A DNA stretch of 64,000 nucleotides from a virus (IMGVR_UViG_3300008954_002609:32001-96000), one strand, 5' to 3'; positions 34,160 through 59,857 are shown, counted from the first letter of the stretch. The notes: generated from the letters alone by a model not told the origin. Translations and numbers: made by a program.

Positions 34160-34996
34160 TTATACAACCGCACGACCCTTGAGGTTTTCCCAATCTTTTT
34201 CTGGTCGTACTTCTAAATTTGTCTGCCATGCTGCCTTGATAACATTCGCATTGACTCCGCATTGGCCGGCGAAGGCAATAAATGCGTTAATGTCCTTTGG
34301 AAAGCAGCTGCCTCCGAATCCCCATTTCCCGTCTGGTCCTGGAACGTTCAAGTGCGAATCCCCAACTCTTCCATCTGCTGCAAATCCAGCAAGTGCCAAG
34401 TCCCAATCCACGTTTGCTTTTTCACAAACTAGCTTCATTTCATTCGCAAAAGCAACCTTGACTGAGAAGAACACATTGTTAAAATATTTTATAAATTCAG
34501 CAGTATTGAAATCTGTCTTCATTATATTACAGTGCTTGAACCTCGTCCTATAAAGTTCCGCGACCTTGCTTGTGTTCTCCGGAGAGCCCCCCAGGACTAT
34601 CCTAGCCTGATTTAAGAAATCATATTTCGCATGTCTCTCTGTTAAGAATTCAGGATTAAAAACAAGATTTAAATTTGGAAACTCATCCGAGAAAGACTGA
34701 GTGGTTCCGGGGACTATTGTGGACTTAATTACCACTACATTATCGTTTCTATCACTAACATTGCTTATATCCCCCAACACCTCTCTCACTATACCAAGAT
34801 TTATGGACCCATCTTTGTTCATCGGGGTTGGCACAGAAACGAAAATTATATCAGACTCATTAACCGTTTCCTCTAGTGAATTCATGCTCCTAAGAGGGTC
34901 CTTATCGTGAACCAATACCGGGATTACGGGAACAAAACCAAAGCCTATTGCTTGCCCCACGAATCCATTTCCAATAATACCTACTGCCTTAATCAT
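34160..34996 (-). CDS. ugd: UDP-glucose/GDP-mannose dehydrogenase family protein (short form)
   Basis: GIIGNGFVG, SVPTP, IKSTIVPGT, FNPEFLTE and catalytic GFGGSCFPKD. Start moved to the ATG at 34996 (GGAG upstream). Confidence 0.9.
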   Translation of the reverse strand: MIKAVGIIGNGFVGQAIGFGFVPVIPVLVHDKDPLRSMNSLEETVNESDIIFVSVPTPMNKDGSINLGIVREVLGDISNVSDRNDNVVVIKSTIVPGTTQSFSDEFPNLNLVFNPEFLTERHAKYDFLNQARIVLGGSPENTSKVAELYRTRFKHCNIMKTDFNTAEFIKYFNNVFFSVKVAFANEMKLVCEKANVDWDLALAGFAADGRVGDSHLNVPGPDGKWGFGGSCFPKDINAFIAFAGQCGVNANVIKAAWQTNLEVRPEKDWENLKGRAVV

Positions 34997-35831
34997 TCGC
35001 AAACTCCAAAAAACACTCTCTTATTCCCTCAGATATCTCCACTTGAGGTCTCCACCCCAAATCAAGCAAAGGCTTCACATTTGCCTTAGTCAACCTGACA
35101 TCTCCTGGGCGCTCTTCAACATAATCAAACTTTAAATCTGGCAGTGTCTCTTTTACCAGCTTCTTCATTTCGTTTAGGGAAATATTGTTTCCAGTTCCGA
35201 CATCGTAAACATTGCCAGAAACAGAATCCATATTGTTCATACAGAAGATGTTCGCAGATACGACATCACTGACATGTGCCATGTCCCTCCTCTGATCTCC
35301 GTCTCCCGTTATATACGGGATCTTCCCATCTTTTATAAACCTTCTCCAATTAGCAACACATGTGGCGTATGGCCCATCAGCGACCTGGTCCACCGAATAT
35401 ACATTAAAGTACCTTAATGCGACGGTATCTACATCATAAAGCCTTTTATATAGCAAGGTTTCGACTTCTCCAACATGTTTGGACAGCGCATACGGGCTTT
35501 CTGGTCCAGATCCGTTACCTACCACGGACGACGAGCTAGAATATACCACTTTAGCTCCTACTTTTTTTGCAAATTCCAAAACAAGAGACGTAGAGTGAAC
35601 GTTGTTGTGCATAACTTCCACTGGGTTCTCAATGCTATAAACTACTCTTGGGATCGCTGCCAAATGGAAGATGACTTCTGGTTTAAAAGCCAGGTGCTTT
35701 TCCTGGAACCCGTCCAAGATGTCTTCTCCCATCTTGAGATCTATTCCCATAACATTGTGACCCAAAGAGTTAAGTTTCCAAAACAAATTCTGACCAATGT
35801 ATCCCATGTGACCAGTCACCATCACGTTCAT
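34989..35831 (-). CDS. NAD-dependent epimerase/dehydratase
   Basis: TGHMGYIG, HLAA, YSSSSSV, YALSK, LRYFNVY and GDGDQRRD motifs. Confidence 0.92.
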   Translation of the reverse strand: MNVMVTGHMGYIGQNLFWKLNSLGHNVMGIDLKMGEDILDGFQEKHLAFKPEVIFHLAAIPRVVYSIENPVEVMHNNVHSTSLVLEFAKKVGAKVVYSSSSSVVGNGSGPESPYALSKHVGEVETLLYKRLYDVDTVALRYFNVYSVDQVADGPYATCVANWRRFIKDGKIPYITGDGDQRRDMAHVSDVVSANIFCMNNMDSVSGNVYDVGTGNNISLNEMKKLVKETLPDLKFDYVEERPGDVRLTKANVKPLLDLGWRPQVEISEGIRECFLEFAND

Positions 35832-36511
35832 TAAATGTACCCCGAAATCTTTAACTGGTTCTCAAAATCTCCCAGTTCTTCATCAGTACAAATATTTTTA
35901 TATGCGTTGACATCCTTGCCAATGCCCTTGTCACTCAACTTTCTTTTTCCATAATCTGAATCATTTCCTTTTCCAGCCCTGGCAAGAACAGAGACATTCC
36001 AATCATAAACCCAGTCTTTTACAAACTCAGGATAATCAGAAAAGTGATTTGCCTTTTGGATACCAAAAACATTGCAAATGTTGTCTTGTACGCAATTTGG
36101 ATTCCTTATAAGGTCCTCGTATTTGACCTCAAGGTCTATAATATCCGAGTATTCGTTCCTTTGTTTCATGGAATCTATCCATCTCTTAGGCTTAACATAA
36201 TTTCCATCTGACAAGATCACGTCTCTTCCGTCCCTTGTCACGTTGATAATTCCGATGTCCTGCTTTCTTATCCAAGACAATTGGTCTTCGAATTCTGGTG
36301 TTTCAGAATTACTCAACACAAAGGGAGGTAGCCTCTTTCCTATCAAAAACCTCTTGTCCGTCTTGATGTTCAAGAACTCACTCAGTGTCATTTCATGACC
36401 GTTAAATCCTTTTCTATAGAGAACGTCAGTGCTTTGAAACGCATAACACATTCTCAACAAAAGAGTCGTCCCACTCTTGGCGCATCCTGTAATAAATATT
36501 CTCTTTGTCAT
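35831..36511 (-). CDS. Sulfotransferase-like P-loop protein
   Basis: IFITGCAKSGTTLL (5'-PSB loop), TRDGRDVILS (3'-PB) and VKYEDLIRNP. Confidence 0.8.
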   Translation of the reverse strand: MTKRIFITGCAKSGTTLLLRMCYAFQSTDVLYRKGFNGHEMTLSEFLNIKTDKRFLIGKRLPPFVLSNSETPEFEDQLSWIRKQDIGIINVTRDGRDVILSDGNYVKPKRWIDSMKQRNEYSDIIDLEVKYEDLIRNPNCVQDNICNVFGIQKANHFSDYPEFVKDWVYDWNVSVLARAGKGNDSDYGKRKLSDKGIGKDVNAYKNICTDEELGDFENQLKISGYI

Positions 36512-36514: not shown

Positions 36515-37132
36515 CTATACTTCCCACGTCTTATATTCTGGTTGCTTGGTTTTATTGGTGTCATGCATTCTGTATCTGTAAAATGGAACTCTCAAATGGT
36601 GAATTCGATATTTGTCGCCCAAGCGTTTTCTTAGTTCCTCTTCCTCCCTATGTCTCATCTTTGGATTATATCCACCTAGCGATAAGAACAGGTCTCTTCG
36701 ATACATTATACCACAGGATATGTTTTCATTTTCAGCATATTTTCTTTCAATGGTGTTCTCATAATCATCCACCATCAAGTAGTCCGAAGATACACAAAAT
36801 GCGTCATGGTTAGACTCTAGATATTTCTTCATAACAAACGACATATCTTTGTTAATATAATCATCGGCGTCGACTCTAAAGAAGAACTGACCTCTGGCAT
36901 TTTCAATTCCTAAGTTAGACGCTACTGCTACTCCGGAATTCTTGTCCGTCTTGAGGAATCTTATGCGATCAGCGAAGGGTCTCAGCATATCTTGCGAGTT
37001 GTCTGTACTACAGTCATCCACCACTATCACCTCAAATCTGACCCTCTCCTGATTAAGACAACTCCTCAAACACCTAGAGACATATTTGCCATAGTTGTAG
37101 TTTGTTATAATTATCGATACGTCAGGTACCAT
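36515..37132 (-). CDS. Glycosyltransferase family 2
   Basis: VSIIITNYNYG, EVIVVDDCSTD, NSGVAVASNLGI and RVDADD motifs. Confidence 0.92.
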   Translation of the reverse strand: MVPDVSIIITNYNYGKYVSRCLRSCLNQERVRFEVIVVDDCSTDNSQDMLRPFADRIRFLKTDKNSGVAVASNLGIENARGQFFFRVDADDYINKDMSFVMKKYLESNHDAFCVSSDYLMVDDYENTIERKYAENENISCGIMYRRDLFLSLGGYNPKMRHREEEELRKRLGDKYRIHHLRVPFYRYRMHDTNKTKQPEYKTWEV

Positions 37133-37845
37133 TATTCTTTCCTCCGATTTAATATTTCGATTTCCTTGATTAGGTTTTTAAACTGTTTAAGAGATCCGTG
37201 ATCAAAAGACCCCAAGTGCCCTCCCTCAAACCTTGATTGTGCAAAAATGTTCTCACTATAATGCTTCTCTAATATGGTAGCACCGCTGAAATATGCTTTC
37301 AATGGGGCGGCGATGCCGACGGAGTGGTCACTATATCCGCGATACCCATATCTCTTAAATTCTTTTGGCATATTTTTCAAGTTATCATCGTGCAAAAAAG
37401 TTGGATACCTGGATACACAAAATAAGTAAGATATCTTCTCACTGTGTCCGAATGGAAATTCACCAATAGCACATTGTCCGGTGGATATGATTGTCGGTTT
37501 ATTCTCTTTTAAGATAGCTTCGCATAAATCTGGATCTTCTTTTACGGTTCTACTTGCTATCTTGTGCCTATCAAATCCGAGGTTCCGCAGCCAATCCAAT
37601 CTCTCTTTATCAAAGGGTGTAGCCATCAGTGGTATACCAAGATTATCACAAAAGTCCTTGAGGGATGCAAGTGTTTGGTAGTCGATGTCCCTGTATTCTC
37701 TTTCAGTGTTTCCAAAAAATGCCACAGAATCCATTAACTGAACTTTCACAACATCTGCTCCTGCGGACCATGCATTTAGTGACATTCTTTTTAGTTCTTC
37801 CAGCGAGCCATGGTGCTGGTTACAAAGATCAACTATTATTTCCAT
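37132..37845 (-). CDS. neuB: NeuB/SpsE-family nonulosonic acid (sialic acid-like) synthase, lacking the C-terminal SAF domain
   Basis: NQHHGS, GADVVKVQ, ATPFD, KIASR, IISTG, CVSRYPT, GYSDHS and ILEKH motifs; 237 aa. Confidence 0.88.
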   Translation of the reverse strand: MEIIVDLCNQHHGSLEELKRMSLNAWSAGADVVKVQLMDSVAFFGNTEREYRDIDYQTLASLKDFCDNLGIPLMATPFDKERLDWLRNLGFDRHKIASRTVKEDPDLCEAILKENKPTIISTGQCAIGEFPFGHSEKISYLFCVSRYPTFLHDDNLKNMPKEFKRYGYRGYSDHSVGIAAPLKAYFSGATILEKHYSENIFAQSRFEGGHLGSFDHGSLKQFKNLIKEIEILNRRKE

Positions 37846-38536
37846 TTAAATACTCCTTCAATAAAATTGGAGTCTTGTATGATATCTCCAACATTCTTCC
37901 ATAATTCATGTCTTTTAATTGATATAGTTTCCCGCCTGGTTCTACGTGATAAGGCTCTACTGAATTATTGATTATATTATACACGTTTTTCTCCAAAATG
38001 TCAAACCCTGTAATGCAAGTTCTCATGAAAATATCTTCTGGTGTGTCAGAGATATCCATCCCTTCTGTTTTAGATTGAGCTATTACCCTACCCTTGTCAA
38101 TTGACGAGTTTATATAGTGAATAGTTGCCCCTATCTCTTCCGGTTTTCCCTCGTAGAGAGCCCAATACGGGCTGTCTACCCCTCTGTGGTGCTGTACTAA
38201 GCCCGTATGTATGTTTATACAGCCTCCGGAAGGTACACTAAAGATGTGCTTTTTGAGTAGAGGGGCACCGAAGACAAAACAAAGGTCAGGAGAAACCTCT
38301 GATATCATATCCTTCATCCTTCTAGAATTTACTTGTTCTGGAGTGCACATAACTAAATTTCCTAGTATCTCGCTACCTCTTGCGTGTCCAAAAAATCTTC
38401 GCTCTGATAGGCAGAATTTCGCATTTCCGGGCTTTTTATCCACTACAATGACCATAGAAAGATCGACATACTTCTGCAATCTAGATATGAACTCCCTGTG
38501 CCTCAGTTGGTTTGATGTTATTGCGATGTGGCTCAT
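37829..38536 (-). CDS. Formyltransferase (N10-formyl-THF dependent)
   Basis: INIHTGLVQHHRG, GATIHYINSSIDKG. Confidence 0.85.
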   Translation of the reverse strand: MSHIAITSNQLRHREFISRLQKYVDLSMVIVVDKKPGNAKFCLSERRFFGHARGSEILGNLVMCTPEQVNSRRMKDMISEVSPDLCFVFGAPLLKKHIFSVPSGGCINIHTGLVQHHRGVDSPYWALYEGKPEEIGATIHYINSSIDKGRVIAQSKTEGMDISDTPEDIFMRTCITGFDILEKNVYNIINNSVEPYHVEPGGKLYQLKDMNYGRMLEISYKTPILLKEYLNGNNS

Positions 38537-39216
38537 AACTTTATTGGGCTTCTCCCCAGGCTCTTAAACGCCTCTCCTCGGGCTTCACCTATTGAATACC
38601 CCCTCACTTTCGTAATTCCATCCAGGTACCTCTCTATTTCATTTAAAATATCGAGCTGAGACATATATACCTTCAACGCTTCCATCTTCAATCCGTATTG
38701 CTCAGTAATATCGACAACGTAATCAGGATCATCAAAAGGATCCAAAATTTCAAAAGACCATATGGCCCCAACAGTGTGTACTCCACCTAACTCCTCCATT
38801 ATGTTTTCCGAAGCTTTCCAGCAGGCTTCTTCTACAATCGCAGAAGTCCTCTTATGATCTCTGTGTTTGCACACTTGATTGTGTGTTATGACCAGGTCTG
38901 GCTTCACCTCTCTTATGATTTTTATAACTTTGTGAAAATTTTGCTTCCTATTAGAGACCTTCTGACAAGGTAGACCGAGGTTGTGAATCTTTTGAATGCC
39001 CAAGATCTTTGCTGCAATAATTGCTTCTTTGTTTCTTGTTTCTACGATTTCAGAACCATCAGTACCTTGTTTAATACCAGTGGAGCCGTCGGTCATAAAA
39101 CAAACTTCTACCCGGCAGCCCCTGTCTGCCCACTTCCTTATGGTGCCGCCGCAGCCAATTGTCTCATCGTCCTGATGTGCTGCGAAAACTAGAACTTTTT
39201 TAGGTATTTTGATCAC
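38533..39216 (-). CDS. PIG-L/LmbE family N-deacetylase
   Basis: AHQDDETIGCGGT, TDG, HRDH and YMSQ motifs. Confidence 0.92.
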   Translation of the reverse strand: MIKIPKKVLVFAAHQDDETIGCGGTIRKWADRGCRVEVCFMTDGSTGIKQGTDGSEIVETRNKEAIIAAKILGIQKIHNLGLPCQKVSNRKQNFHKVIKIIREVKPDLVITHNQVCKHRDHKRTSAIVEEACWKASENIMEELGGVHTVGAIWSFEILDPFDDPDYVVDITEQYGLKMEALKVYMSQLDILNEIERYLDGITKVRGYSIGEARGEAFKSLGRSPIKL

Positions 39217-39829
39217 TTCTTTTCTCTATAAACTTTACATCTTCAATAGTGTGAACGTCATGCACATCGCAAATAAAGGCTCCCGTTTTCACACTCAAAT
39301 CTCTCTGGTGAACGTACCATAGTTTCATTATTCTAAATGCTGCATTCATCATTAAATCTCTGTCTACGCTCATCAACTCATTTCTATCATTAATAATGAA
39401 CGACTCGATTGCATTATCCAATGTTCTTCCTGTAATTTCAGGAGAATTTGCTTGCAGGGAGACGACAGTCTCTGGCTTAAAATGATTTCTCTCTATATAA
39501 GAACAAGCCTCTCTAATTGCCTCCATCTTGTAGACGTGGTCTGCCGCTGTTCTTGGATCCCTGTCGTGGACATTTGCACCATACTTAATTGCTATTTTTT
39601 TTATCTCTTCATCTTCTGTGGTTACCCACACGTCGGTTATATATTCACTGTCCTTTGCTGCCTTTATCGCCCAAGATAACATAGGCTTGCCCCAAATGGG
39701 ATAAATGTTCTTGCGCTTGAGCCTTTTAGACCCTCCCCGTGCAGGTATGATGGCTACTATTCTTTCTTTTTTAGTCTTATTGCTTGCGCCAATCAGGTCA
39801 GATAAGCCCGTCATTAATGACTCTATCAT
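39200..39829 (-). CDS. neuA: Acylneuraminate cytidylyltransferase (NeuA/PseF-like)
   Basis: IVAIIPARGGSKRLKRKN...GKPML, LQANSP, DVHTIED. Start set at the ATGA overlap at 39829. Confidence 0.88.
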   Translation of the reverse strand: MIESLMTGLSDLIGASNKTKKERIVAIIPARGGSKRLKRKNIYPIWGKPMLSWAIKAAKDSEYITDVWVTTEDEEIKKIAIKYGANVHDRDPRTAADHVYKMEAIREACSYIERNHFKPETVVSLQANSPEITGRTLDNAIESFIINDRNELMSVDRDLMMNAAFRIMKLWYVHQRDLSVKTGAFICDVHDVHTIEDVKFIEKRSDQNT

Positions 39830-40416
39830 GGCGGGAACCCTTTCGTGTGATGGGGTTTTCCGTATTTCTTGAGATTTGCCATCCATTTGGCTTTAGGTCT
39901 CAGCACTGCTATACCACCAACCTCTTCAACTAGATCATACCACTCTAAAGCAGCCTTATATCTAGGTCTGTAGTATTCACACAGAAAAACAATTGTGTCT
40001 TTGTGGGAGTACCTTGTAGCCATCTCGCAACATTGCACTCTCGCTCGACCATCGATAATGAAAAAATCATACTTTTTTTTACCAAAATGATCAATAGCCT
40101 TTATATAACTTTTAAACTCTTCGTTCCTATTGTCTAAAAGAATAGAGTGTCCTCTTTCCCAAATATTCCACGGAATATCTGCAGGAGCATAGTAGAGTTT
40201 CACATTCTTTATCTCCTGCTCCTGAATCATGTCTGCAACCTTATCTGCCCACTTGTCGTCGTGTTCTACCGAGTTGTAACTCTTTACAAATTTAGAAAAA
40301 TGAATAGTGCTGCCGCCTGGTCCCCATTCGAACAGTGTTTTGCCTTTTGACAAACGACTTTCAATATAGTCAATCTCTTCCTGATTCATTAGTGGCTTAT
40401 TTTTTATATTTTTCAT
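39826..40416 (-). CDS. Class I SAM-dependent methyltransferase-like protein
   Basis: LFEWGPGGSTIHF, SVEHD, YDFFIIDGRARVQC. Confidence 0.75.
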   Translation of the reverse strand: MKNIKNKPLMNQEEIDYIESRLSKGKTLFEWGPGGSTIHFSKFVKSYNSVEHDDKWADKVADMIQEQEIKNVKLYYAPADIPWNIWERGHSILLDNRNEEFKSYIKAIDHFGKKKYDFFIIDGRARVQCCEMATRYSHKDTIVFLCEYYRPRYKAALEWYDLVEEVGGIAVLRPKAKWMANLKKYGKPHHTKGFPP

Positions 40417-40421: not shown

Positions 40422-41432
40422 CTATACTAACACATCAAGTAAATTTTTGCAAGTATCTTTACTGTCGAACAAATAATCTTTTCTTGCTTTTCGGAATTCA
40501 GGATCCAAATCCGTTAAATTTAGGTAGGTAATCGCTGCTGCAAATTCAGCATGAGTGAACTTTTTGTTCATATCAACACAATAACCATACCTATATAGAT
40601 AATCATGAGTCACCCTATAAGGTCTCTTGCTTCCGTTTCTAAATTCTGGCTTTATGTCAAAATTAATTAATGGCACATTGTGCATCACACACTCTTCTAC
40701 AGTTGTTGATCCAAAATTTATTGCTATGTCGCTTATCGATAACAATTCCTGGGTTGTATGAGGGTACCAAGAATCGTCTAAGAAACAATAGTGACCGTTT
40801 GATTTAAGTGCTTGTTTCCAGGTAGAACTAACTGGGTCTTTTCCTCGACTTTTAAACAAAACTGTATAGCCCATCATATCCAAACAGGCCATCAGGTTCG
40901 GAAAGTCTACATGTGCTTGGTCTCTTCCTTTAGGAGATATGAGTGTCGCAAACTTACCGTCTTTCGGCAAAGAGTATTTATTAAGAACACTTGATTTGTC
41001 GATTTCAATATCATATTTTGGTATCCCCAAATAAAGATTTTTATCCGTATGGAGATTATAATAATCTGCTATCGACCGACTAGGCATAAGCACATGATCT
41101 GCAACATCTATATAGTGTTTGTAACTTTCAATGAAGTCTGTTTGATAAGTGCAGACAACCTTCTTTGTATCCTTTGCTTTAGCAACAAAATTTACACCTG
41201 TTTTTTCATTTGAAAACAAGAGACCCTTTGCAGATTTTACATCTGCTATATCCTTAAATAATACGTTGTGATGAATGACAAGTTGCGCCAATACTGATTC
41301 ATACTTGTGAGGACAATTATATTTGTGGGATGGTGCAATGTAAAAAACAGATTGAATACCCCTCTTGTTCCCCTCTATCACTAGTGGCATCCAGTACCTA
41401 AGATGCGTCATTTCCATTAACAAAAAATTCAT
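40422..41432 (-). CDS. GT-B fold protein (CDP-glycerol transferase / sialyltransferase-like)
   Basis: YLGIPKYD and ELLSISDIAINFGSTTVEECVMHNVPLINF resemble the C-terminal GT-B domain of TagF/capsule polymerase/sialyltransferase-like families. Confidence 0.55.
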   Translation of the reverse strand: MNFLLMEMTHLRYWMPLVIEGNKRGIQSVFYIAPSHKYNCPHKYESVLAQLVIHHNVLFKDIADVKSAKGLLFSNEKTGVNFVAKAKDTKKVVCTYQTDFIESYKHYIDVADHVLMPSRSIADYYNLHTDKNLYLGIPKYDIEIDKSSVLNKYSLPKDGKFATLISPKGRDQAHVDFPNLMACLDMMGYTVLFKSRGKDPVSSTWKQALKSNGHYCFLDDSWYPHTTQELLSISDIAINFGSTTVEECVMHNVPLINFDIKPEFRNGSKRPYRVTHDYLYRYGYCVDMNKKFTHAEFAAAITYLNLTDLDPEFRKARKDYLFDSKDTCKNLLDVLV

Positions 41433-42058
41433 TTTTCTATAATCTCCGCCAATACATAAATTCTACCTTTTATCGGATCTTTTAAAACAGAATAGTCACC
41501 AAATTCCAAGCCCGCCTGATTCAACATATCGGTAGTAAATAAATTGTCAGAATGACTCACACTATGTTGCATGTCCATTCCTTCAGGTATCGCTTCCTTA
41601 AAGTGTGGAATTAAATTAGTGCTACCCGCCGGCCAGGACTGCAATAATGTATCTGGACCCAAAGCCACTATATTTCCGGTATTAAAGTCGAACATAACCC
41701 TCTTATTGTTTTGAACAGCATATTTTAGATTCCTTATCAAGCCTGACGATGATTGCACAAGATAGGCGAGCCTTAAACCTAAAACAAGATCATATCCCTT
41801 TATAGCGTTTTCCCATTTGTCGTGGACATCCCACTTGTTATTTATGGGGGGTTCGTCCTCATTCAATATATCATAGAAGTGGTGCTCAAGACCTTCAACT
41901 TGTATTTTTAGATTAATACATGAAAACATATCAGAATATTTCCCAATCTGTTGTTGTCCAAGCCAGGCGACCTTATTTCCTGGTTTTAGATTTTCATTTA
42001 TATAGTCCCCAACCAAATGTGCATATTTGGGTATTATAAAGTGATCCGTCATTCCCAC
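41429..42058 (-). CDS. Hypothetical protein, possibly a degenerate methyltransferase fold
   Basis: KVAWLGQ...FYDI...WDV...YDLVLGLRLAYL has a Rossmann-like strand order. Confidence 0.4.
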   Translation of the reverse strand: MGMTDHFIIPKYAHLVGDYINENLKPGNKVAWLGQQQIGKYSDMFSCINLKIQVEGLEHHFYDILNEDEPPINNKWDVHDKWENAIKGYDLVLGLRLAYLVQSSSGLIRNLKYAVQNNKRVMFDFNTGNIVALGPDTLLQSWPAGSTNLIPHFKEAIPEGMDMQHSVSHSDNLFTTDMLNQAGLEFGDYSVLKDPIKGRIYVLAEIIEK

Positions 42059-47298: not shown

Positions 47299-47822
47299 CG
47301 ATTTGCTATCTCCTTATGACCAGCGTTCGTAAAATGAACGCCATCGATATAATGCTCTTCGACTCCGGACATATCACACATGTCCAGCCCGAGGTCAGCA
47401 GATAGCCTCACTATAACATCATTGTATGAATTAATCAAGTGAGAATTTTTATAATATAAGGGAGTCATGCCCAACTTCGGAAGAGTCGAGATAATGATGT
47501 GCATACCGTGAATCTTGCATATGTCAATTATTTGACGCAAATTGTCTTCATAGATCTCTGGTGGGATTGCCTTTTGTGTATCATTTGTGCCAATCATAAT
47601 AAAAGCAATGTTGGCAACCTTGTGGGCAGAAGCCGCTCTCCAAGTTCTTTTGAGAAGATCAACACTTGTTTCTCCACTTATTCCGTAATTGTGACAAATG
47701 TAGACTTCTCCAGTCTTCTCCTTCATTATCTTTGATAATTCAATAGTGGGAGATCTAGCATATTCGTCTCTTGCTCCGTATGTGATGGAGTCTCCCAAGC
47801 AAACTATTTCATTCCAAATCAT
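47265..47822 (-). CDS. SGNH/GDSL esterase or O-acyltransferase
   Basis: GDSITYG, GISGET, GTND and DGVH blocks. SD AGGAGG. Confidence 0.92.
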   Translation of the reverse strand: MIWNEIVCLGDSITYGARDEYARSPTIELSKIMKEKTGEVYICHNYGISGETSVDLLKRTWRAASAHKVANIAFIMIGTNDTQKAIPPEIYEDNLRQIIDICKIHGMHIIISTLPKLGMTPLYYKNSHLINSYNDVIVRLSADLGLDMCDMSGVEEHYIDGVHFTNAGHKEIANRWATKILTSQT

Positions 47823-51991: not shown

Positions 51992-51992
51992 C

Positions 51993-52502: not shown

Positions 52503-52800
52503 CTCTTATTCCTTTATCATCCACATAGACATCTCCTGCTGGCTTGCCCAAGAATAAATCATTATATTTGACACCCCACTTGTTTAACTGATTCCTTGTT
52601 AGGTCATAAAACATTTTATACGATAACATGACGTCATTCTTTGTTCGACCCATACCTCGTGCAGTGTGAAATATTATTGTATTTCCCGAATCATAAAGCT
52701 CATTGATTTTATCTATTCGATCTTGTATCGGGACACTGTTGTTGTAATCGCTGTTCTCGGTATGGCAAATGGTCTCGTCTATATCAAAAACATAAATCAC
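52483..52800 (-). CDS. Minimal HAD-family phosphatase
   Basis: VFDIDETIC, HTARG, GKP, YVDDK are HAD motifs I-IV; 105 aa. Confidence 0.88.
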   Translation of the reverse strand: MIYVFDIDETICHTENSDYNNSVPIQDRIDKINELYDSGNTIIFHTARGMGRTKNDVMLSYKMFYDLTRNQLNKWGVKYNDLFLGKPAGDVYVDDKGIRDVRFFK

Positions 52801-53582
52801 TTAACGTCCTCCAATGATACCACGTAATTGCCAAACTTTTTAACCGAAATTGCAGCACACTTGTTTGCAAATTCTATTGCGATGGGAAAGGAAAAGAAGG
52901 ACATGTATGCTGTAACAAATGCTGCCAGGAATGTGTCTCCTGCCCCACAAACATCAAAAACCTTGGCAGGTTCTGTTTCAAATTCTCGTCCGCGCCAAGA
53001 TGCGCCGCGAGAACCCAAAGTTACAATCATTTCAGAATTGATAGGTTGCTTTTCTATTTTTGAAAATTCTAGTTCGTTTAACTTGATTATACAATCTTCA
53101 TAACATGATAAATCTGTCTTTTTTGAATCAACAAAGATTACACAATTTTCCCCCCTCAGAGAGTCAATGATCTTGTTACAATTCTTATTACAGATGAACC
53201 CCTTATCATAATCTGATATTACTACACAATCATACTCAAATCCTGATTTTTTTACCGTTTCTATGAGGCTCTCGCTCATCGGGGGAAGCCTATTTGCCTC
53301 ACCTGCATCTACCCTAAGAAGGTGCTGCATTGTCTTTTCATCGACAAACCTCTCCTTTATTATTTCTTTTGTATTGGTCAGGACTCTCGTATCGTGCCCA
53401 AAAGACTCCAGATTCCTCTGAACATTCAATACCATGCCAGGCTTATCCTCAATGCGTGAGGTTTTAAGCACTGGAACAGGCGCTTCTGGGCTTATCCTGT
53501 CGCAAGTTCCATAGTTATACCTGTCTATGCAGGAGTCACCTATTATCAATATCTTGAATGATTTGAGTTGTTGAATATCCAT
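52797..53582 (-). CDS. hldA: D-glycero-beta-D-manno-heptose-7-phosphate kinase (HldE/RfaE kinase domain, PfkB family)
   Basis: ILIIGD, RISPEAPVPV, LLRVD, VISDYDKG, TLGSRGA, DVCGAGDTF. Confidence 0.9.
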   Translation of the reverse strand: MDIQQLKSFKILIIGDSCIDRYNYGTCDRISPEAPVPVLKTSRIEDKPGMVLNVQRNLESFGHDTRVLTNTKEIIKERFVDEKTMQHLLRVDAGEANRLPPMSESLIETVKKSGFEYDCVVISDYDKGFICNKNCNKIIDSLRGENCVIFVDSKKTDLSCYEDCIIKLNELEFSKIEKQPINSEMIVTLGSRGASWRGREFETEPAKVFDVCGAGDTFLAAFVTAYMSFFSFPIAIEFANKCAAISVKKFGNYVVSLEDVK

Positions 53583-53934
53583 CTAAATAATTAAAGATTA
53601 TCACCGAATTACACAAGTCTTTTCCAATTACTTGATCTTCGGTATAGTCTCCACCCTTTACAATAATGTCAGGCTTTATTTTTTTTACTAACTCTAGCGG
53701 AGTATCTTCGTCAAAAATAATTACTTTATCAACATATCTACATGACTCCAGTAAAAATTTTCTATCTTTTTGTGAAAAGATTGGTCTTGACGATCCCTTG
53801 AGCCTTCTAACGCTAACATCACTGTTCAGTCCGACAATCACCCTTCCATATGCCTTACAAAATTTTAATAATTCTATATGACCTCGGTGGACAATATCGA
53901 AGCATCCGTTAGTAAAGATTTTCTTTTTAGCCAT
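53536..53934 (-). CDS. hldC: Heptose-1-phosphate adenylyltransferase (HldE/RfaE nucleotidyltransferase domain)
   Basis: FTNGCFDIVHRGH, VGLNSD-x-SVRRLKG-x2-RP, FDEDTP, VKGGDY, GYSTT. Confidence 0.92.
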   Translation of the reverse strand: MAKKKIFTNGCFDIVHRGHIELLKFCKAYGRVIVGLNSDVSVRRLKGSSRPIFSQKDRKFLLESCRYVDKVIIFDEDTPLELVKKIKPDIIVKGGDYTEDQVIGKDLCNSVIIFNYLDGYSTTQIIQDIDNR

Positions 53935-53941
53935 GAATGCA

Positions 53942-54775
53942 TTATAACAGAGTATCTAGTACTTTGTCAACTATTTCTTTTTCATTGTGATTGTTTACTT
54001 CAGATGCGCACTCTTCGCATTTTATCTTAAGTCCGCATGGTTCGTGATTTCCAATATTTATATTAATATTCTGAGGATATGCAACCATGTCCTCAGACTG
54101 GTACCCTGTTATTATCACTAGCGACTTCGTATCTACAGTCGTGGCCGCGTGAACAAGACCACCTTCGGTACTGAGGAACATTTCAGATTCTCCTATAAGA
54201 ATCGCCGCTTCTCTGAAAGATGTTTTACCCCTGTAATCGATTACGTTTTCTAAGAGTGGGCTCGACGTGCTTCCTATTTGCACAATCTGTATATGGTCCT
54301 TCAACACATTCACTATACTTTGCCACTTACTTAGTGGGTATGCTCTGTTTGGTGTGTAGTTTGTTTTTGAATAAGGTTCTATAGTTACAAATCTATCCCC
54401 TAGTTTATCTGTGAGGTCTTTTACTTTCTCTCTTTCTCGATCAGTAAAGAACATTTCACATCTAAGTTCTGGATCTTCTATTCCGTAGACTTCGCACATT
54501 TGTTCGATTATATGCTTGTCTTTCCTGTGGTAGGCTTTTATTGGTGTGTCTGTTTTGCAATAATTCGCTTCCGGGTTATTCATAAACATCGGAAACGCCT
54601 CATCTCCATCTCCAGTTTTGTATATATTTGGATTATTTTCAAACACTGGGCTTCTGATAAGTTTTGTTACGTTTTTGCCGTCTCCTTCGCATGGAAGGAC
54701 TTTGACTTTCTCTGGTAGCTTCTTCTTTAACTCTCTTGCTACTGCTGTCCAGGCAAGATAACCTCCTAAGCCCAT
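53942..54775 (-). CDS. Glycosyltransferase family 9 (heptosyltransferase-like)
   Basis: C-terminal RGKTSFREAAILI...STEGGLVHAA matches GT9. N-terminal MGLGGY lacks the Asp of the usual GxGD motif. Adjacent to hldC/hldA. Confidence 0.7.
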   Translation of the reverse strand: MGLGGYLAWTAVARELKKKLPEKVKVLPCEGDGKNVTKLIRSPVFENNPNIYKTGDGDEAFPMFMNNPEANYCKTDTPIKAYHRKDKHIIEQMCEVYGIEDPELRCEMFFTDREREKVKDLTDKLGDRFVTIEPYSKTNYTPNRAYPLSKWQSIVNVLKDHIQIVQIGSTSSPLLENVIDYRGKTSFREAAILIGESEMFLSTEGGLVHAATTVDTKSLVIITGYQSEDMVAYPQNININIGNHEPCGLKIKCEECASEVNNHNEKEIVDKVLDTLL

Positions 54776-54779: not shown

Positions 54780-55751
54780 CTACTCGCAATACTTTATCAT
54801 TAAATCATACGCATCATTTGCATATCTCTCGTATCCGGCGTGTTGCAGTATATATTCTCTAGGCGACAATGGCATAGGAATCTCTCCACCTAGAAACTGC
54901 TTTATCTTCTCGATATAAGGCTGGGCAGAGTCATCATTTCTTTTTAGATACTTTTCTGTCATTCTATCAGTTCCGTGAACCCAAAAATTCTGATCAAATA
55001 TGCTGGGCGTATTATGAGGAGATCCGATTACTGGCACATCTAAAAACATGGCTTCATAAGTCGCTATTCCTGGACACTCATCTAAGCTAAGGTTGATGCA
55101 ACATTTTGACTTCAATAAGGCATCAAAATATTCTTCTCTTTTATAGTCTCCGTAAGTTAGTTCAATATAGGATATCTCGTTGTTTTCAAGACCTTCGATT
55201 ATACCATCATGAAAATTAAAATAATTATCATCATATCTTCGCCTCTTCGAGTAGACAAGGCAATCATATTCTATATTCTTATTGTTTATCAAATCTGGGT
55301 CAATATCGAAGGTTACACATTTATCTAGAAAATCAGCTCTGTGTACCTGGTCTTTTGGTAAGAATTTCTTTACATGATCGTTATAATACTTAACTTGGTC
55401 AATGTATAGATCGAACTCAACATTCTCAACAAACCACTTGTCCCACGAGTCAGCAGGACCAATGTCTGGATAATCTAATAAAACATTCGGTCCAAAAACA
55501 AACTTCTTTTTTGGAAATGCTTTTTTCAAATTAGCATAAAGATTGGGATCAAAACCCTTCGCATAAAACCAGAAAACGTCAGTCCGATTAATGTCATAGT
55601 TTTCTTTAAGCTTCCAAAGCTCTTTCACATCAAATCTATCATGTTTATCTTGATTGAGTGCGTCCACATGATGGCTAAAAGTCAGCCCAGGGCCGCGGTC
55701 GCCCCCAGGTCGAGAGCACATTAGAATATTAAACTTCTTATAGGTAGTCAC
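54780..55751 (-). CDS. GT-B fold glycosyltransferase
   Basis: RGPG, FGPN, and LSLDECPGIATYEAMFLDVPVI (E-x7-E). Confidence 0.75.
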   Translation of the reverse strand: MTTYKKFNILMCSRPGGDRGPGLTFSHHVDALNQDKHDRFDVKELWKLKENYDINRTDVFWFYAKGFDPNLYANLKKAFPKKKFVFGPNVLLDYPDIGPADSWDKWFVENVEFDLYIDQVKYYNDHVKKFLPKDQVHRADFLDKCVTFDIDPDLINNKNIEYDCLVYSKRRRYDDNYFNFHDGIIEGLENNEISYIELTYGDYKREEYFDALLKSKCCINLSLDECPGIATYEAMFLDVPVIGSPHNTPSIFDQNFWVHGTDRMTEKYLKRNDDSAQPYIEKIKQFLGGEIPMPLSPREYILQHAGYERYANDAYDLMIKYCE

Positions 55752-56508
55752 TTATTGGAAGCTCCTTTAGCCTCGCATGTGGCTTCTTTTGTTTCAACTC
55801 CGCCTCTATGCGTAACTGGTCTGCCCTATGCACTCTGTCCACTGCTAGAGGATTCTCCCTATTGTATACATAAGTGATTCTCTTAACTGGGTGAAAGTGA
55901 TTTGGTCCTGCCATCTCTACCATGGGATACATTATCACCCGGTCCCACGTAAATTTATAAAAGTCACCATCACTATCCAGCATGTCTTCTTTGTTGATGC
56001 TCATAAACAATTCTTTTCTGAATGTCCTTAGATGAGAGAGCGTCCACTCCTTGTGTCTTATGTTCCCTTCCCAATAATCGTCCGTAACTTTGGGTCTTAC
56101 AATTTTGCCACCTACCGACTCGATATAGGATCCTGCAGTTATCCAAACTTTTGGATTTTGATATATTTCATTTAAGTGTTGGAGAACATACCTGTTTGCT
56201 AGCCAGTCATCGCCATCTAGAGCCAGTATTATAGATCCAGGCTTTGCACAGTCCACCGCTTGATATAAGTTGGTCAAAGCCCTTACATTTTGTCGGTTAT
56301 GTTGTATTGTCAACTGACCGGGTCTCGACTCCCTGAATTCTTGAAATAGAGCGTCTGCACGCTGACCAGTCATATCAGAAGATGCATCGTTTATGAACCG
56401 AATATCATAATTCCCATAATCCTGCTTTATAGCTGAGTTTATATTCTTCTCTACCCACGACTCATTGTTATAGGACAAGATAACTATTGTGAAGTGATTT
56501 TCTATCAA
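55738..56508 (-). CDS. Glycosyltransferase family 2
   Basis: SYNNESWVEKNINS, INDASSD, LDGDDWL, SHLRTF, YVYN. Start probably the TTG at 56508 (TTGA overlap); the track uses 56523. Confidence 0.9.
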   Translation of the reverse strand: MIENHFTIVILSYNNESWVEKNINSAIKQDYGNYDIRFINDASSDMTGQRADALFQEFRESRPGQLTIQHNRQNVRALTNLYQAVDCAKPGSIILALDGDDWLANRYVLQHLNEIYQNPKVWITAGSYIESVGGKIVRPKVTDDYWEGNIRHKEWTLSHLRTFRKELFMSINKEDMLDSDGDFYKFTWDRVIMYPMVEMAGPNHFHPVKRITYVYNRENPLAVDRVHRADQLRIEAELKQKKPHARLKELPISDYL

Positions 56509-58595
56509 AATGCATTCTCCCAAAAATACGAAGGTCTAGATTTTAGATATTCAACAACTTCTTTATAGTCCTTATTGAACCATTCCTCGTCGCGGTGTTG
56601 CACATTATCGTTAATCTCCAATTGACAACCAAGAAGCTTTGCCTCAATTACCAACCTTGGACAAGTATCTAAGCCGCCGGGCTTGAAACACAATCCACGG
56701 GATAAGGAAAGTTTCTTTAGAAATTCCATAGGTTCTACTCCCCACAAAACTTCGTATTCATAACTCTTCTCTTTGCACCAGTCCTCTGATTCTTGTGCGC
56801 CCTTGACCCAACTATCTGACCCTAAGACGACCCATTTGCTGCTTCTCTTCTTCTTTGATTCTTCTCTAAGGTTGTCAATCAATTCAAAGAAATTCTCAGA
56901 AAAAAGAGAAGACAGTACATGCAAGTTTTCAGTATTAGACAAATCTAGAGATTCTATGTGTATCTTCTTCTGATTCTCTGACATAAAGAACACAGATTTT
57001 GCGTTCTCTGCAAAATCTTTTAATCTCTTTCCCTGTTCTGTGCTGGAGTATTCGCACTTTTCTCCCTCGACCATCTCGTAAAGAGTTGGATTCCTGTGTT
57101 TGCAAAACTTATAATCAAACTCAATAAATGAATATTCTATATTTAGTTTTTTTATTGCCTCAAAGGCTTCTGGTTTCATATTCGCGATATTACCAAAAAC
57201 CCATTTTGCATCTTTGTGATCTGTCAACAACTCTTCAGTAAGCATTTGAGAATTGACTGCTCCTAATTTGTCAGAAGGAGCAGACTCAATTATGGTTTGA
57301 AGACTCATTTCCGCGCCTCCAGCATACTGACTAGCGAACATATCGCTGACATAGATGTATTCTGGGGGGTGTAAAATATTTTCCGGAAGAACAGCTTCTA
57401 GCATTCTACTTTGGATCTTTTCTTCTGAAAAGTTTTCTAGTACATGCTTTTGTAGCTTCTTAGCCCAAGACAAGTACATCCCATGATTGGTATACATCGC
57501 TCTTATTTTCTTTTTAAAGTCAACCTTGTTTGGGTAGCACCACATAGTACCTTCATGTATGATGTTTTTCCAAACAGCTTCCTTTGGAATAGGAGCTAGA
57601 ACATAATCAACACGAGCAAATAATGGCTTCCTCTTTGTCTTTCCCTTCTTATTTCTAACAGGTGCATACAAGAAATCCAAATGGCCGCTCCAACCTGGCG
57701 CAACTACTGGGAGCCCGTTACAGGCTGCTTCGAATAGAGGAAGTCCATATCCTTCACCGTGTGTTGCGCTAATTATCGCTTTAATCTTCGGATGAGTATA
57801 TAGTGAATTTAATTCTTCTCGGGTCATATCGCCGTGAAGGAAGTATATTTTGCACTTTCTATCTTGAAACTCTTTCTGACTCAATAGCATTTCAAGATTG
57901 CGTTGTGTCATTCGTCGGTCCATTATAGAATTCTTTGAGGTATTTGTTTTCACGACCAAACCAACTTCTTGATTCTTAAATTCGTCAACAAACCACCTTA
58001 TCGTGTTTTCGAGGTTCTTTCTCACAGACCATTGAGCTATTACCAAAAAGTTGAATTCTGTATCAACTTCTAAATTAAAATCTTCATCTTTGTCCAGACT
58101 GCCCACTGGGTAATGAACCACGTCGATTGGCGCTCCGCAACCCAATATTTTCTTTTCACCTTCTTCGTTCTGGAATTCATACTTGGAGTTTTCAAACCCC
58201 CACTTTGCGAATTCCGATGGGACAACAATCTTATTCATGGTATAGCTCTTCTCTATCCATGCTGGAGCTACCTTTGTTGTTTCTATTCCTGCGGTGACGG
58301 TGACTGCATAGGGAGCCAGTCTGTTAAACTCGTTAGGTATTCCCACTCTGATATGGAAATCAAAATTCCTCTGATCTTCAGGTAGAGATGTGAGTTTATG
58401 CATCAATTGATCCATCCACTCTCTTTCTTCTGTGTCGCCTAATAACCAAGAGGTTGTTCCCCAATTTAAGGGAGACAGATAAATGTCTAGAAGATCGTCC
58501 CTCTTTCTGAGTGACCTCAACACCAATCTCGTATGTTCCCCGTATCCCGACTGAGTGAGAGCGGGTCCCTCTACTATAACTTTATATTTCTTCAT
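56505..58595 (-). CDS. Two-domain glycosyltransferase (GT4 plus a second GT-B domain)
   Basis: TQSGYG, RKN, THGEGYGLPLFEAA in the N-terminal part; GGAE and DTCPRLVIEAKLLGC in the C-terminal part. Start at the ATGA overlap at 58595. Confidence 0.88.
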   Translation of the reverse strand: MKKYKVIVEGPALTQSGYGEHTRLVLRSLRKRDDLLDIYLSPLNWGTTSWLLGDTEEREWMDQLMHKLTSLPEDQRNFDFHIRVGIPNEFNRLAPYAVTVTAGIETTKVAPAWIEKSYTMNKIVVPSEFAKWGFENSKYEFQNEEGEKKILGCGAPIDVVHYPVGSLDKDEDFNLEVDTEFNFLVIAQWSVRKNLENTIRWFVDEFKNQEVGLVVKTNTSKNSIMDRRMTQRNLEMLLSQKEFQDRKCKIYFLHGDMTREELNSLYTHPKIKAIISATHGEGYGLPLFEAACNGLPVVAPGWSGHLDFLYAPVRNKKGKTKRKPLFARVDYVLAPIPKEAVWKNIIHEGTMWCYPNKVDFKKKIRAMYTNHGMYLSWAKKLQKHVLENFSEEKIQSRMLEAVLPENILHPPEYIYVSDMFASQYAGGAEMSLQTIIESAPSDKLGAVNSQMLTEELLTDHKDAKWVFGNIANMKPEAFEAIKKLNIEYSFIEFDYKFCKHRNPTLYEMVEGEKCEYSSTEQGKRLKDFAENAKSVFFMSENQKKIHIESLDLSNTENLHVLSSLFSENFFELIDNLREESKKKRSSKWVVLGSDSWVKGAQESEDWCKEKSYEYEVLWGVEPMEFLKKLSLSRGLCFKPGGLDTCPRLVIEAKLLGCQLEINDNVQHRDEEWFNKDYKEVVEYLKSRPSYFWENAF

Positions 58596-59857
58596 TTTAT
58601 CTCCACCATCTTCCACCCTTTGTGCTTTCTATTCGACCAAGAGCCGCCCTCTTCGTGAATCTTGGTGAGGGTTTCATCCCACAAATTTACATAACTTTCA
58701 AAGCCGTAATTATCGAGGACATGCTTTCTTGCCTTTTTGCCCATCTCTGCTCTCTCTTCTTTTGTCATGTTATACATCTTCTCTAGTGCATTGATGAAAT
58801 CATCCTTGGAGATCCTATCCTCATAAATATATGGAACCTGCTGAGAACCTATTATTGACTTGGAAACAGGTTCAATGCCGGTGCCGAACCATTCTTTCCC
58901 ATCTGTCACCTGTTCTTGCAAACCACCAGTCATATTTACAATGATTGGAACCTCACAAGCTAAAGATTCGAGAGTCGCTAGACCAAAACCCTCTGCATCT
59001 GAAATATTTATCGTGCAATCGCAAACATTGTATATCATAGACAAATCGCGGGCTGGCATCTTGTTTACTGATAAGAGCACTTCTCCGTTGTTTAGACCTC
59101 TTTCCGCCATGATTGCTTCTAGGTCTTGCCCATTCGGATCTTTTGGTTCCGTGTGCATAATGAGACAAGCATTTTCTCTACCAATACGATCCAAAAACTC
59201 GGAAAACCACCAAATAAGTGTACCTGATTGTTTTCTTCTTGCATTTCTATTGTTCCAAAAGAATAAAAATTTCTTTTCGCCATTTTTCTTGTAGGCTAGC
59301 TTGTTCTTTTTCCTAAAATCATCGGCTAATTCGTCTGGAACCTTTTTATATATTTCTGTATTTGCTGTGTGTGGGATTCTAACCCTAGGTACGCTCGGTG
59401 CCACCTTTGAAACGATATCGTCGGTCACCTTGCTTATCGTTGCTATAAAGTCGTTTGATTCATAGAAAGGTCGATTGAACATCGGAGGGGGATAATTGTC
59501 CCAAACATGATAATATACCAAAGGAACAACCGATCTTACTTCGTTCTCTATCTCCCATAGCCAGGGCCAGAAGCGCGGGTCTGTCATTATCCACATAATG
59601 TCTGGCTTTTCTGTTTGAAGTAGCGTTCTTACCTTATCTTGTGTTCCGTATCCATCTACTGGATAGATAACCCAGTCGTCTTCGTATCCCTGTATCTTAA
59701 TCGGGTCGTAACTGGGGTGTTTTATTGCTCCACCAAAACAAACAAACTGAAACCTACCAGTCCTAAGCAACCCTTCAATCATGTATCTTGTCTGTCCTGC
59801 TACACCGGAGGGTGCCAGTGGGTTGTCCGCCAAGACAAAGACCTTAATCTTTTTCAT
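58592..59857 (-). CDS. Glycosyltransferase family 4
   Basis: SGVA, NRNARRK, SDAEGFGLATLESLAC, TGGLQEQ. Confidence 0.92.
   Translation of the reverse strand: MKKIKVFVLADNPLAPSGVAGQTRYMIEGLLRTGRFQFVCFGGAIKHPSYDPIKIQGYEDDWVIYPVDGYGTQDKVRTLLQTEKPDIMWIMTDPRFWPWLWEIENEVRSVVPLVYYHVWDNYPPPMFNRPFYESNDFIATISKVTDDIVSKVAPSVPRVRIPHTANTEIYKKVPDELADDFRKKNKLAYKKNGEKKFLFFWNNRNARRKQSGTLIWWFSEFLDRIGRENACLIMHTEPKDPNGQDLEAIMAERGLNNGEVLLSVNKMPARDLSMIYNVCDCTINISDAEGFGLATLESLACEVPIIVNMTGGLQEQVTDGKEWFGTGIEPVSKSIIGSQQVPYIYEDRISKDDFINALEKMYNMTKEERAEMGKKARKHVLDNYGFESYVNLWDETLTKIHEEGGSWSNRKHKGWKMVEIK

Follow-up and report, generated by a model that had tools for sequence, protein, structure and literature searches.

A variable glycan-gene slot behind a conserved glycosyltransferase pair in myophages resembling RM378 and immuto

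Large glycan gene sets have been known in marine phages for about twenty years, with their target never demonstrated. Glycans on phage particles have been described for mycobacteriophages (cited in PMC12619734), and two virion glycoproteins have been reported for jumbo phage XacN1 (PMC5852040). In this study, a stretch of viral DNA of 64,000 nucleotides (the window, bases 32001–96000 of the single 104,467-bp viral contig IMGVR_UViG_3300008954_002609) was analysed, in which almost every gene lies on the minus strand and positions 34160–59857 hold an island of glycan enzymes. An earlier note, made from the sequence alone, had read this island as a putative virion glycosylation system. Comparison with related genomes indicates that RM378/immuto-like myophages very probably share a glycan-assembly locus across the whole lineage and that the island is its variable cargo, inserted behind a pair of glycosyltransferases (GTs) of family GT4, here called GT4-1 and GT4-2. 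Phage glycan gene sets and virion glycosylation are already known; the new findings are an anchor-plus-slot architecture that cultured phages share with uncultured ones, the widely ranging cargo, the class of promoter and an intein.

Conserved anchor genes and a variable slot

The upstream anchor is a PD-(D/E)XK nuclease gene just outside the island (59871–60824, minus strand; Pfam PF12705, E 1e-20). Searching IMG/VR with this nuclease yielded 33 loci, several of them on viral contigs of approximately 190 kb, and the order PhoH, two small genes, nuclease, GT4-1, GT4-2 was common to all of them; the nuclease occupies the same position in the cultured phages immuto and Mel-JY01. Where the loci extend far enough, genes for proteins of 89, 81 and 111 amino acids (aa) follow, and then a sigma factor. 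The corresponding genes of the window include a PIN-PhoH fusion (62082–63422; PHROGs/Pfam), GT4-1 (58592–59857, minus strand), GT4-2 (56505–58616, minus strand), the conserved 89-aa gene that forms the downstream anchor (33865–34134, minus strand) and a late sigma-factor-like gene (32602–33315, minus strand; phrog_234, E 3e-7), which is kept in relatives. The 517-aa downstream protein, used as the query against viral contigs, gave no matches.

The synteny comparison proposed in the earlier note was run on 20 genomes, and the stretch from the GT4 pair to the 89-aa gene proved hypervariable, as had been suspected. The distance from GT4-2 to the 89-aa gene was 0, 0, 3.7, 4.0, 5.6, 8.9, 9.5, 10.0, 10.0, 10.3, 10.8, 12.6, 15.5, 15.6, 15.8, 17.2, 18.1, 20.5, 22.4 (this window) and 23.8 kb, and even sister genomes diverged strongly in slot size (for example, 10.3 versus 23.8 kb). 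Together the slots contained 302 proteins in 117 families, with 60 singletons. Among the 18 filled slots, the commonest families were short-chain dehydrogenases/reductases (SDRs; 16 slots) and a second GT-B-like domain (15), followed by sugar dehydrogenase (8), cupin (8), HAD (7), HldA (6), HldC (6) and adenosine 5′-phosphosulfate (APS) kinase (6); glycan genes in the relatives' slots also included DegT aminotransferases, a B12-radical-SAM enzyme and a GT32-like protein. It is well supported that the slot gains and loses modules quickly behind a GT4 pair kept by every relative.

The island is not recent foreign DNA in one assembly. In the complete relative G002 (192,597 bp), the two flanks and the genes for head, tail and baseplate were collinear with those of the contig, at 45–75% aa identity, and a contig from a different sample (G006) carried a syntenic 20.5-kb island whose genes were 45–75% identical, equal to the divergence of the backbone. 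GC content and skew were uniform.

In immuto, the nuclease and the two GT4 genes are followed by GT2, aminotransferase, methyltransferase and epimerase genes, and in Mel-JY01 by genes of GT-A and methyltransferase type. In RM378, GT4-1 follows a gene annotated as "similar to DNA polymerase I"; a second gene there resembles GT4-2 by profile comparison only (probability 89%) and no longer has the second Glu of the E-x7-E motif. GT4-1 also matches the record of an uncultured 484-kb phage. Two further observations concern the cultured phages. GT4-1 of Mel-JY01 is annotated as two open reading frames (ORFs; 573 and 909 bp), matching residues 1–145 and 161–381, which reflects either a split gene or a sequencing frameshift, and RM378 has a UDP-galactopyranose-mutase-like gene (112985–114136) far from its GT4 pair.

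The contig itself probably belongs to the RM378/immuto-like ("Far-T4"-type) myophages, because the best phage matches of its gp6-like baseplate wedge protein (17172–18962; PHROGs/Pfam) are Mel-JY01 (host Microcystis), immuto (host Flavobacterium) and the uncultured 484-kb phage, at approximately 32% identity; this placement is by best hits and not by a capsid tree. The island had been described as lying next to the baseplate genes, which needs correction: the wedge genes (17172–19376, including the gp25-like gene at 18981–19376; PHROGs/Pfam) are 14.8 kb downstream, and directly downstream of the island are three small genes and the late-sigma-like gene.

At E ≤ 1e-30, the representatives clustered at 50% identity included 246 relatives of GT4-1, and E289-x7-E297 was invariant in 23 homologues. 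Both GT4s keep E-x7-E in the marine family, and both have a GT-B fold with this motif in the C-terminal domain, as in family GT4. When one genome from each of 185,579 species was scanned with GT4-1, matches occurred only on phage contigs mis-binned into unrelated metagenome-assembled genomes (MAGs), so the pair appears to be without a close cellular homologue. The AlphaFold2 (AF2) model of GT4-1 has a mean predicted local distance difference test (pLDDT) score of 88.7, and its best solved fold is PDB 3oy2, the putative GT B736L of chlorovirus NY-2A; B736L was the best fold for both GT4s (E 1e-19 and 9e-14), at 13–18% identity.

Contigs of the family turned up in MAGs carrying the labels Pelagibacter (2), Woesearchaeota (3), Maricaulis, Flavobacteriales, Gammaproteobacteria and uncultured proteobacterium. 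As a host clue these labels were dropped, since binning into such unrelated taxa is mis-binning. A piece of the family was also seen inside the 2.8-Mb WOR-3 "chromosome" CP070664.1, where the GT4-1 match ends at residue 314. All of these pieces are likely to be bin or scaffold contamination.

Among the best 150 GT4-1 representatives, 17 were 570–911 aa long with a split match, as expected for an intein. In the four relatives checked with Pfam (P0122, P0125, P0139 and P0157) an intein was present in all and a LAGLIDADG endonuclease in three, and in P0122, the only one aligned, the intein lies between Leu293 and residue 294, within the catalytic E-x7-E. Inteins typically occupy the active sites of indispensable proteins, and the location within the catalytic motif therefore fits a core role of GT4-1. 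To our knowledge, there is no earlier report of an intein in a glycosyltransferase.

Enzymes of the island and their expression

The count of about 31 co-oriented, mostly coupled genes given in the earlier note holds. There are 31 minus-strand ORFs in 34160–59857, and 28 of the 30 junctions overlap or have gaps of no more than 7 nt, the other two gaps being 19 and 62 nt. Functions were assigned to 27 of the ORFs by Pfam, NCBIfam, PDB sequence search and the protein Atlas. PDB sequence searches gave nothing usable for the ORFs starting at 40422, 54780, 51269 and 41429 or for the C-terminal part of the 703-aa protein, and megablast of the island against 50,697 phage records gave no match. All genes described below are on the minus strand.

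Of the approximately 10 GT domains claimed previously, seven are firm by Pfam and up to three more are only probable. The firm ones are three GT2 enzymes (36515–37132, E 4e-31; 44571–45497, E 3e-17; 55738–56523, PF00535, E 5e-16), a GT4 (43651–44619), GT4-1 (Glycos_transf_1), the core retaining-type GT of the lineage, the N-terminal half of the 703-aa GT4-2, and a short GT9 heptosyltransferase-like protein of 277 aa (53942–54775; PF01075, E 7e-7). In GT4-2 (Pfam, AF2; pLDDT 90.9), the core GT4 domain (residues 1–410) is followed by a second GT-B-like domain of two Rossmann-like halves (420–703); the fold search of this model aligned mainly the N-terminal GT4, so the fold class of 420–703 is read from the secondary-structure pattern only. 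This second domain belongs to the variable set, being a separate gene in many relatives and missing from slot-empty phages. The protein encoded at 40422–41432 has a GT-B fold of TagF-like or polysialyltransferase-like type (Atlas structure, TM 0.79 to the PF04464 cluster) and is a candidate nonulosonate transferase, because it adjoins the CMP-sugar cassette both here and in two relatives. As a lead, a 323-aa protein (54780–55751) is possibly GT-B; it had no Pfam, NCBIfam or PDB match, and its Atlas neighbours are viral clusters, including one GT1.

Two donor pathways had also been proposed, and each was recovered in part. For ADP-heptose, there is an HldC-like heptose-1-phosphate adenylyltransferase (53536–53934; TIGR02199, 157 bits) and an HldA-like heptose-7-phosphate kinase (52797–53582; TIGR02198, 168 bits), both regarded as divergent members because they score below the equivalog cut-offs. 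Beside them are a minimal HAD phosphatase of 105 aa (52483–52800; TIGR01689, E 2e-14), a candidate stand-in for GmhB, and a cupin (51993–52502; Cupin_2), possibly a sugar-phosphate isomerase or epimerase. The route is incomplete in that no SIS-type sedoheptulose-7-phosphate isomerase GmhA was found among the island proteins by Pfam or NCBIfam; the cupin, which accompanies the heptose module in 8 relatives, may replace it. For CMP-nonulosonate, the synthase and the CMP-transferase are present: a short NeuB-family protein without the SAF domain (37132–37845; PF03102, E 2e-33) and a cytidylyltransferase of CMP-nonulosonate/Kdo (3-deoxy-D-manno-octulosonate) type, PseF/KdsB-like (39200–39886; PF02348, E 3e-23; PseF 97 bits), both with matches far below equivalog cut-offs. 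For the early steps from UDP-GlcNAc, the island has no aminotransferase or 2-epimerase, and two SDRs could act as dehydratase. Within the same cassette are a PIG-L family N-deacetylase (38533–39216) and a formyltransferase (37829–38536).

The remaining sugar-modifying enzymes are a short nucleoside diphosphate (NDP)-sugar dehydrogenase of UDP-glucose type without the C-terminal domain (34160–35002; TIGR03026, 197 bits, profile 61–295 of 413), an SDR epimerase/dehydratase (34989–35831) and an extended SDR of NDP-sugar 4,6-dehydratase or epimerase type (48699–49646; Pfam, NCBIfam). The tailoring set listed in the earlier note was recovered with Pfam and NCBIfam as methyl-, formyl-, carbamoyl- and sulfotransferases, deacetylases and an esterase. 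It comprises a carbamoyltransferase (49647–51272; PF16861, E 8e-62) with more than 120 metagenomic clusters at 60% identity or above, an FkbM-family methyltransferase (47842–48741), a GDSL esterase/acyl-hydrolase (47265–47822; Pfam, E 5e-23), a two-domain formyltransferase of Fmt/ArnA type (46336–47298; PF00551 and PF02911), a class I methyltransferase (45494–46273; Methyltransf_24), a methyltransferase-like protein (39826–40416; PDB 3cvo, E 3e-5), a DUF2334 deacetylase-like protein (42058–42765; Pfam), a firm sulfotransferase (35831–36511; PF13469, 31.8 bits) and a possible one (42755–43663; PF13469, 22.8 bits, below the cut-off of 27). A 240-aa protein (51269–51991) and a 209-aa protein (41429–42058) had no significant matches.

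Four enzymes are shortened, namely the sugar dehydrogenase, NeuB, the HAD and the GT9. All four were matched near full length by G006 (289 aligned columns for the dehydrogenase), indicating that they are not truncated by error. It was also observed that slots of six relatives encode the APS kinase with an N-terminal DUF2061, which would supply 3′-phosphoadenosine 5′-phosphosulfate to sulfotransferases; the present window has sulfotransferases without an APS kinase.

The absence of export and priming genes, noted earlier for the island, extends to a complete genome. A hydropathy scan detected no membrane segment in any island protein, and no protein with four or more hydrophobic segments was found in the whole contig or in the 192.6-kb G002, leaving no candidate for a polytopic WecA-like protein. 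Neither the island nor G002 has a recognisable Wzx, Wzy, Wzz, ABC exporter, priming phosphoglycosyltransferase or ligase, and the Bac_transf priming transferase PF02397 was absent from five complete relatives. A phage oligosaccharyltransferase or flippase is excluded by the lack of any polytopic membrane protein in the complete relative.

Perfect sigma-70 promoters (TTGACA-17/18-TATAAT) were found at three places on the minus strand. One precedes the operon of the nuclease and the GT4 pair, and with it the island (61040–61068, spacer 17; its −10 element stops 14 nt short of the ORF that starts at 61026), one precedes the heptose module, before hldC (53941–53970), and one lies inside the formyltransferase gene of the CMP-sugar cassette, 131 nt before neuB (37976–38004). 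At the near-perfect threshold (score of at least 11/12), 9 of 9 sites in the contig were on the coding strand and 0 on the other, and over 20 related genomes the sites were divided 92 to 32. Such sites recur before the nuclease, in the GT4 pair and in the slots; in G002 they are mainly on the non-structural side of the genome. Since host-type promoters precede the modules, the island is probably transcribed by the unmodified host polymerase, that is, early. A second motif, ACTAWTTA, is a candidate late promoter. Contig-wide it occurred at 14 coding-strand sites versus 5 on the other strand, and most of the coding-strand sites are 16–59 nt upstream of gene starts in the structural module; sites inside the window are at 32588, 18989 and 63455. 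The T4-type late promoter TATAAATA was also tried and showed no pattern, ACTAWTTA fitting better.

Possible acceptors of the glycan

The lack of a phage oligosaccharyltransferase, flippase and priming enzyme leads to two possibilities, direct cytoplasmic glycosylation of a phage-made acceptor or use of host lipid-linked intermediates. The first is favoured because the GT4 pair is a core feature of phages of three host phyla and is without a close cellular homologue, and because its nearest fold is viral and the precedents cited above exist. Tentatively, then, the acceptor would be a virion protein. The GT4 pair would start the glycan on an acceptor encoded by the phage itself, for which virion proteins exposed at the surface, for example the giant baseplate proteins or the fibre proteins, are the most plausible candidates. 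The slot enzymes would lengthen and decorate this start into a strain-specific acidic glycan carried on the particle, much as mycobacteriophages glycosylate their virions and giant viruses their capsids and fibrils. The modules contributing to it would be the heptose-nucleotide enzymes, the CMP-nonulosonate enzymes with their de-N-acetylase and formyltransferase, the uronic-acid and 6-deoxy-sugar enzymes, approximately seven additional GTs, and the sulfo-, carbamoyl-, methyl- and acyl-tailoring enzymes. Because every enzyme is soluble, the glycan is built stepwise in the host cytoplasm, probably from early infection.

A more specific version of this proposal starts from a motif, and as a whole it is unlikely to be correct in every part. 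In it, the GT4 pair would start Ser/Thr O-glycans at [ST]-[G/A]-[ST] of the giant baseplate or fibre proteins, and the swappable slot would write a strain-specific heptose/nonulosonate glycan, sulfated, carbamoylated and formylated, giving "phage serotypes". The excess of the motif, to which the earlier note had pointed, was recovered. [ST]-G-[ST] was 3- to 5-fold over local-shuffle expectation in proteins of 3590, 646 and 570 aa (window 4459–17172; contig 98632–100344), with 28 observed versus 9.2 expected in the 3590-aa Laminin_G_3-bearing giant baseplate-side protein and 11 versus 2.5 in the 646-aa protein; permuted motifs were not enriched. The excess also tracks slot occupancy: over the 20 genomes, the observed/expected ratio of the giant protein was 1.05 and 1.3 in the two slot-empty genomes versus 2.1–5.2 in 18 of 18 filled ones. 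Another large protein, of 3157 aa, is encoded upstream of the gp25-like gene (19381–28854); it is without a family match, has one strongly hydrophobic stretch (residues 1312–1350) and, in contrast to the 3590-aa protein, shows no excess of the motif.

Several observations weigh against virion proteins as the acceptor. The two slot-empty genomes are sisters, so that the tree gives one independent contrast and the link between motif and slot is only a lead; in the 570-aa fibre-like protein the motif is within a structural repeat, h-I-S-G-S-x-x-x-F, and 6 of 11 motif positions are conserved in a folded protein, so the motif may be a structural feature. The wider lineage does not keep the locus next to structural genes, the homologous locus lying among replication genes in immuto, Mel-JY01 and RM378. 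No ACTAWTTA site is present in the island, which is served by host-type promoters. In Che8-type mycobacteriophages the GT genes are among the late structural genes, whereas here they are upstream of the late sigma gene and behind sigma-70-type promoters. The folds that follow B736L in the GT4-1 search, those of MshA, BshA, sucrose-phosphate synthase and trehalose synthases, act on small soluble acceptors and not on proteins. Soluble GT-B enzymes can also use lipid-linked host intermediates, and the gene content is that of O-antigen and capsule loci, with nucleotide-sugar genes, GT2, GT4 and GT9 enzymes and tailoring enzymes.

The last two points lead to the host envelope, a possible target but a less probable one than the particle. 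The soluble phage GTs would work from the cytoplasmic side of the inner membrane, taking lipid-linked intermediates of the host (undecaprenyl-pyrophosphate-sugar, lipid A-core or a capsule primer) as substrates, with the host supplying the priming transferase, the flippase or ABC exporter and the ligase, and the altered O-antigen or capsule could, for example, keep out superinfecting phages or stop progeny from adsorbing. The combination of ADP-heptose and GT9 is classic for the lipopolysaccharide (LPS) inner core, the 703-aa protein (8qoy at rank 2) and the TagF-like protein at 40422 resemble capsule and teichoic-acid polymerases, early host-type promoters suit a function that needs time before lysis, and the hypervariability parallels that of host O-antigen loci. 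The 22–24 cell-wall/LPS genes of P-SSM2, S-SCSM1 and S-SCSM2R have been read in this way (PMC12801897). Against it, the GT4 pair is kept across phages of Rhodothermus, Flavobacterium and Microcystis and marine phages although the envelopes of these hosts differ, and the pair is not of close cellular origin. The island genes have diverged along with the phage backbone, with no recent capture, and any new glycan would need to be accepted by flippases and ligases of the host, none of which the phage supplies.

A different cytoplasmic acceptor is improbable. The candidates would be a phage protein outside the virion, a protein of the host, a small molecule, or an oligo- or polysaccharide set free at lysis, for example as a decoy or matrix. 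The small-acceptor folds behind B736L, the solubility of all the enzymes and the probably early expression would be compatible with such an acceptor; no candidate acceptor gene is conserved in the slot, and ten GTs with heavy tailoring are hard to square with a small-molecule product. We know of no precedent for such a system.

Least probable by far is DNA hypermodification, in which the GTs would build a glycan on a modified base and so evade restriction. No DNA-glycan route known to us works without one of the following: a ThyA homologue, a JBP-type enzyme, DpdA, or a C5-methyltransferase together with a TET-like oxygenase. Both newer routes also need feeder enzymes; phage clusters put mono- to tri-saccharides including heptose and Kdo on 5-hydroxymethylcytosine (bioRxiv 10.1101/2023.12.21.572611), and arabinose chains are found on 5-hydroxycytosine (PMC13326640). 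The position of the locus beside a nuclease, and among replication genes in cultured relatives, would suit such a function, as would the early-type promoters and the fact that GT4-1 passes the cut-off of PF20706, "GT4 in conflict systems", beneath a stronger generic GT4 match. The earlier note had seen no nucleobase hydroxymethylase, and no ThyA-type enzyme is present in five complete relatives either. In these relatives, rated 100% complete, PF00303, PF00145, PF12851 and PF01702, standing for ThyA homologues, C5-methyltransferases, TET/JBP and TGT/DpdA, were absent, the result for PF12851 being weak because its control was silent, and neither complete G002 nor the contig itself has homologues of immuto DpdA, Que, FolE, DpdN or ThyA. 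In DNA of immuto_2-6A, a phage that carries the same GT4 pair with glycan genes, liquid chromatography with ultraviolet and tandem mass spectrometric detection showed dA, dC and dT, with formyl-preQ1 replacing dG, and a glycosylated nucleoside was not reported (bioRxiv 10.1101/2023.04.13.536721). The alternative named in the earlier note is thus weakened both by the lack of a known feeder enzyme in the complete relatives and by the published immuto DNA, and a chain built by about ten GTs with sulfate and carbamoyl groups far exceeds any described DNA glycan. A role of the island formyltransferases as DpdN-like enzymes was also ruled out, with no match to immuto DpdN at E ≤ 1e-3 and no 7-deazaguanine genes.

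A chimeric assembly with a cellular locus is ruled out by independent contigs collinear on both flanks and by an island as diverged as the backbone.

Comparison with known glycan systems

The fixed anchor of a nuclease and two GT4s makes the locus findable in hundreds of uncultured phages. The cargo ranges from none to 24 kb between close relatives. As immuto, Mel-JY01 and RM378 are cultured, the acceptor is determinable by standard methods. If the glycan is on the particle, virion glycosylation would extend from a few mycobacteriophages to abundant aquatic myophages, with strain-specific glycan coats bearing on adsorption, grazing and the stickiness of particles in the ocean; if it is O-linked, bacterial viruses would have an equivalent of the fibril glycosylation of giant viruses. 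Should the glycan be on the host, the locus would give a first defined mechanism for auxiliary "LPS genes". In either case it is a source of compact soluble rare-sugar enzymes, including the domain-less NeuB, the short sugar dehydrogenase, the 105-aa HAD and sulfotransferases.

In Gram-positive serine-rich-repeat adhesins, a GT4-type pair, GtfA and GtfB, starts cytoplasmic Ser/Thr O-glycosylation and variable GTs elaborate the glycan. The likeness to the present arrangement is an analogy: both marine GT4s keep E-x7-E, so there is no inactive GtfB-like partner, the DUF1975 insertion is lacking, and GtfA (4pqg) was found only at rank 15 in the fold search with the 703-aa protein. O-antigen and capsule loci have the same enzyme families and the same hypervariability, and like them the island is a co-oriented cluster of nucleotide-sugar, GT and tailoring genes; they differ in having Wzx, Wzy, Wzz, an ABC transporter, a priming enzyme and a ligase, which were not found here or in G002.

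The phage DNA-glycan clusters (bioRxiv 10.1101/2023.12.21.572611; PMC13326640) likewise combine GT-A and GT-B enzymes, heptose modules of HAD or kinase with nucleotidyltransferase, and Kdo-type sugars. They are always paired with a base-hydroxylating or -hydroxymethylating enzyme, none of which was detected here, and make at most trisaccharides. Giant viruses, in the capsid glycans of chloroviruses and the fibril clusters of Megavirinae, likewise use nucleotide-sugar synthesis and cytoplasmic GTs encoded in clade-specific clusters; these are eukaryotic viruses, and the function of B736L is itself putative.

Among marine myophages, the cyanomyoviruses P-SSM2, S-SCSM1 and S-SCSM2R (PMC12801897) similarly have at least 20 glycan genes, with up to 13 GTs, epimerases and KdsA/KdsB. 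The function of these sets is unproven, and they belong to a T4-like lineage with scattered clusters, whereas here one contiguous slot lies behind a core GT4 pair. No description of such a slot was found in PMC12801897, in PMC12619734, or in the Far-T4 genome and metaviromic-island papers, the last two of which contain no glycosyl- or glycosyltransferase terms.

The mycobacteriophages Che8, Corndog and Myrna (Freeman et al. 2023, as cited in PMC12801897 and PMC12619734) likewise have soluble cytoplasmic phage GTs in sets that vary between relatives, and the present island resembles them in that all steps are cytoplasmic, with no lipid carrier or export genes. Those GTs act on the phages' own structural proteins, with 2–4 of them encoded among the late structural genes of siphoviruses and the glycans placed on the C-termini of capsid and tail-tube proteins; here, a virion acceptor is proposed. 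The island described here differs from these systems by its approximately 10 GTs, its core GT4 pair, its own donor pathways, its tailoring enzymes and its host-type promoters.

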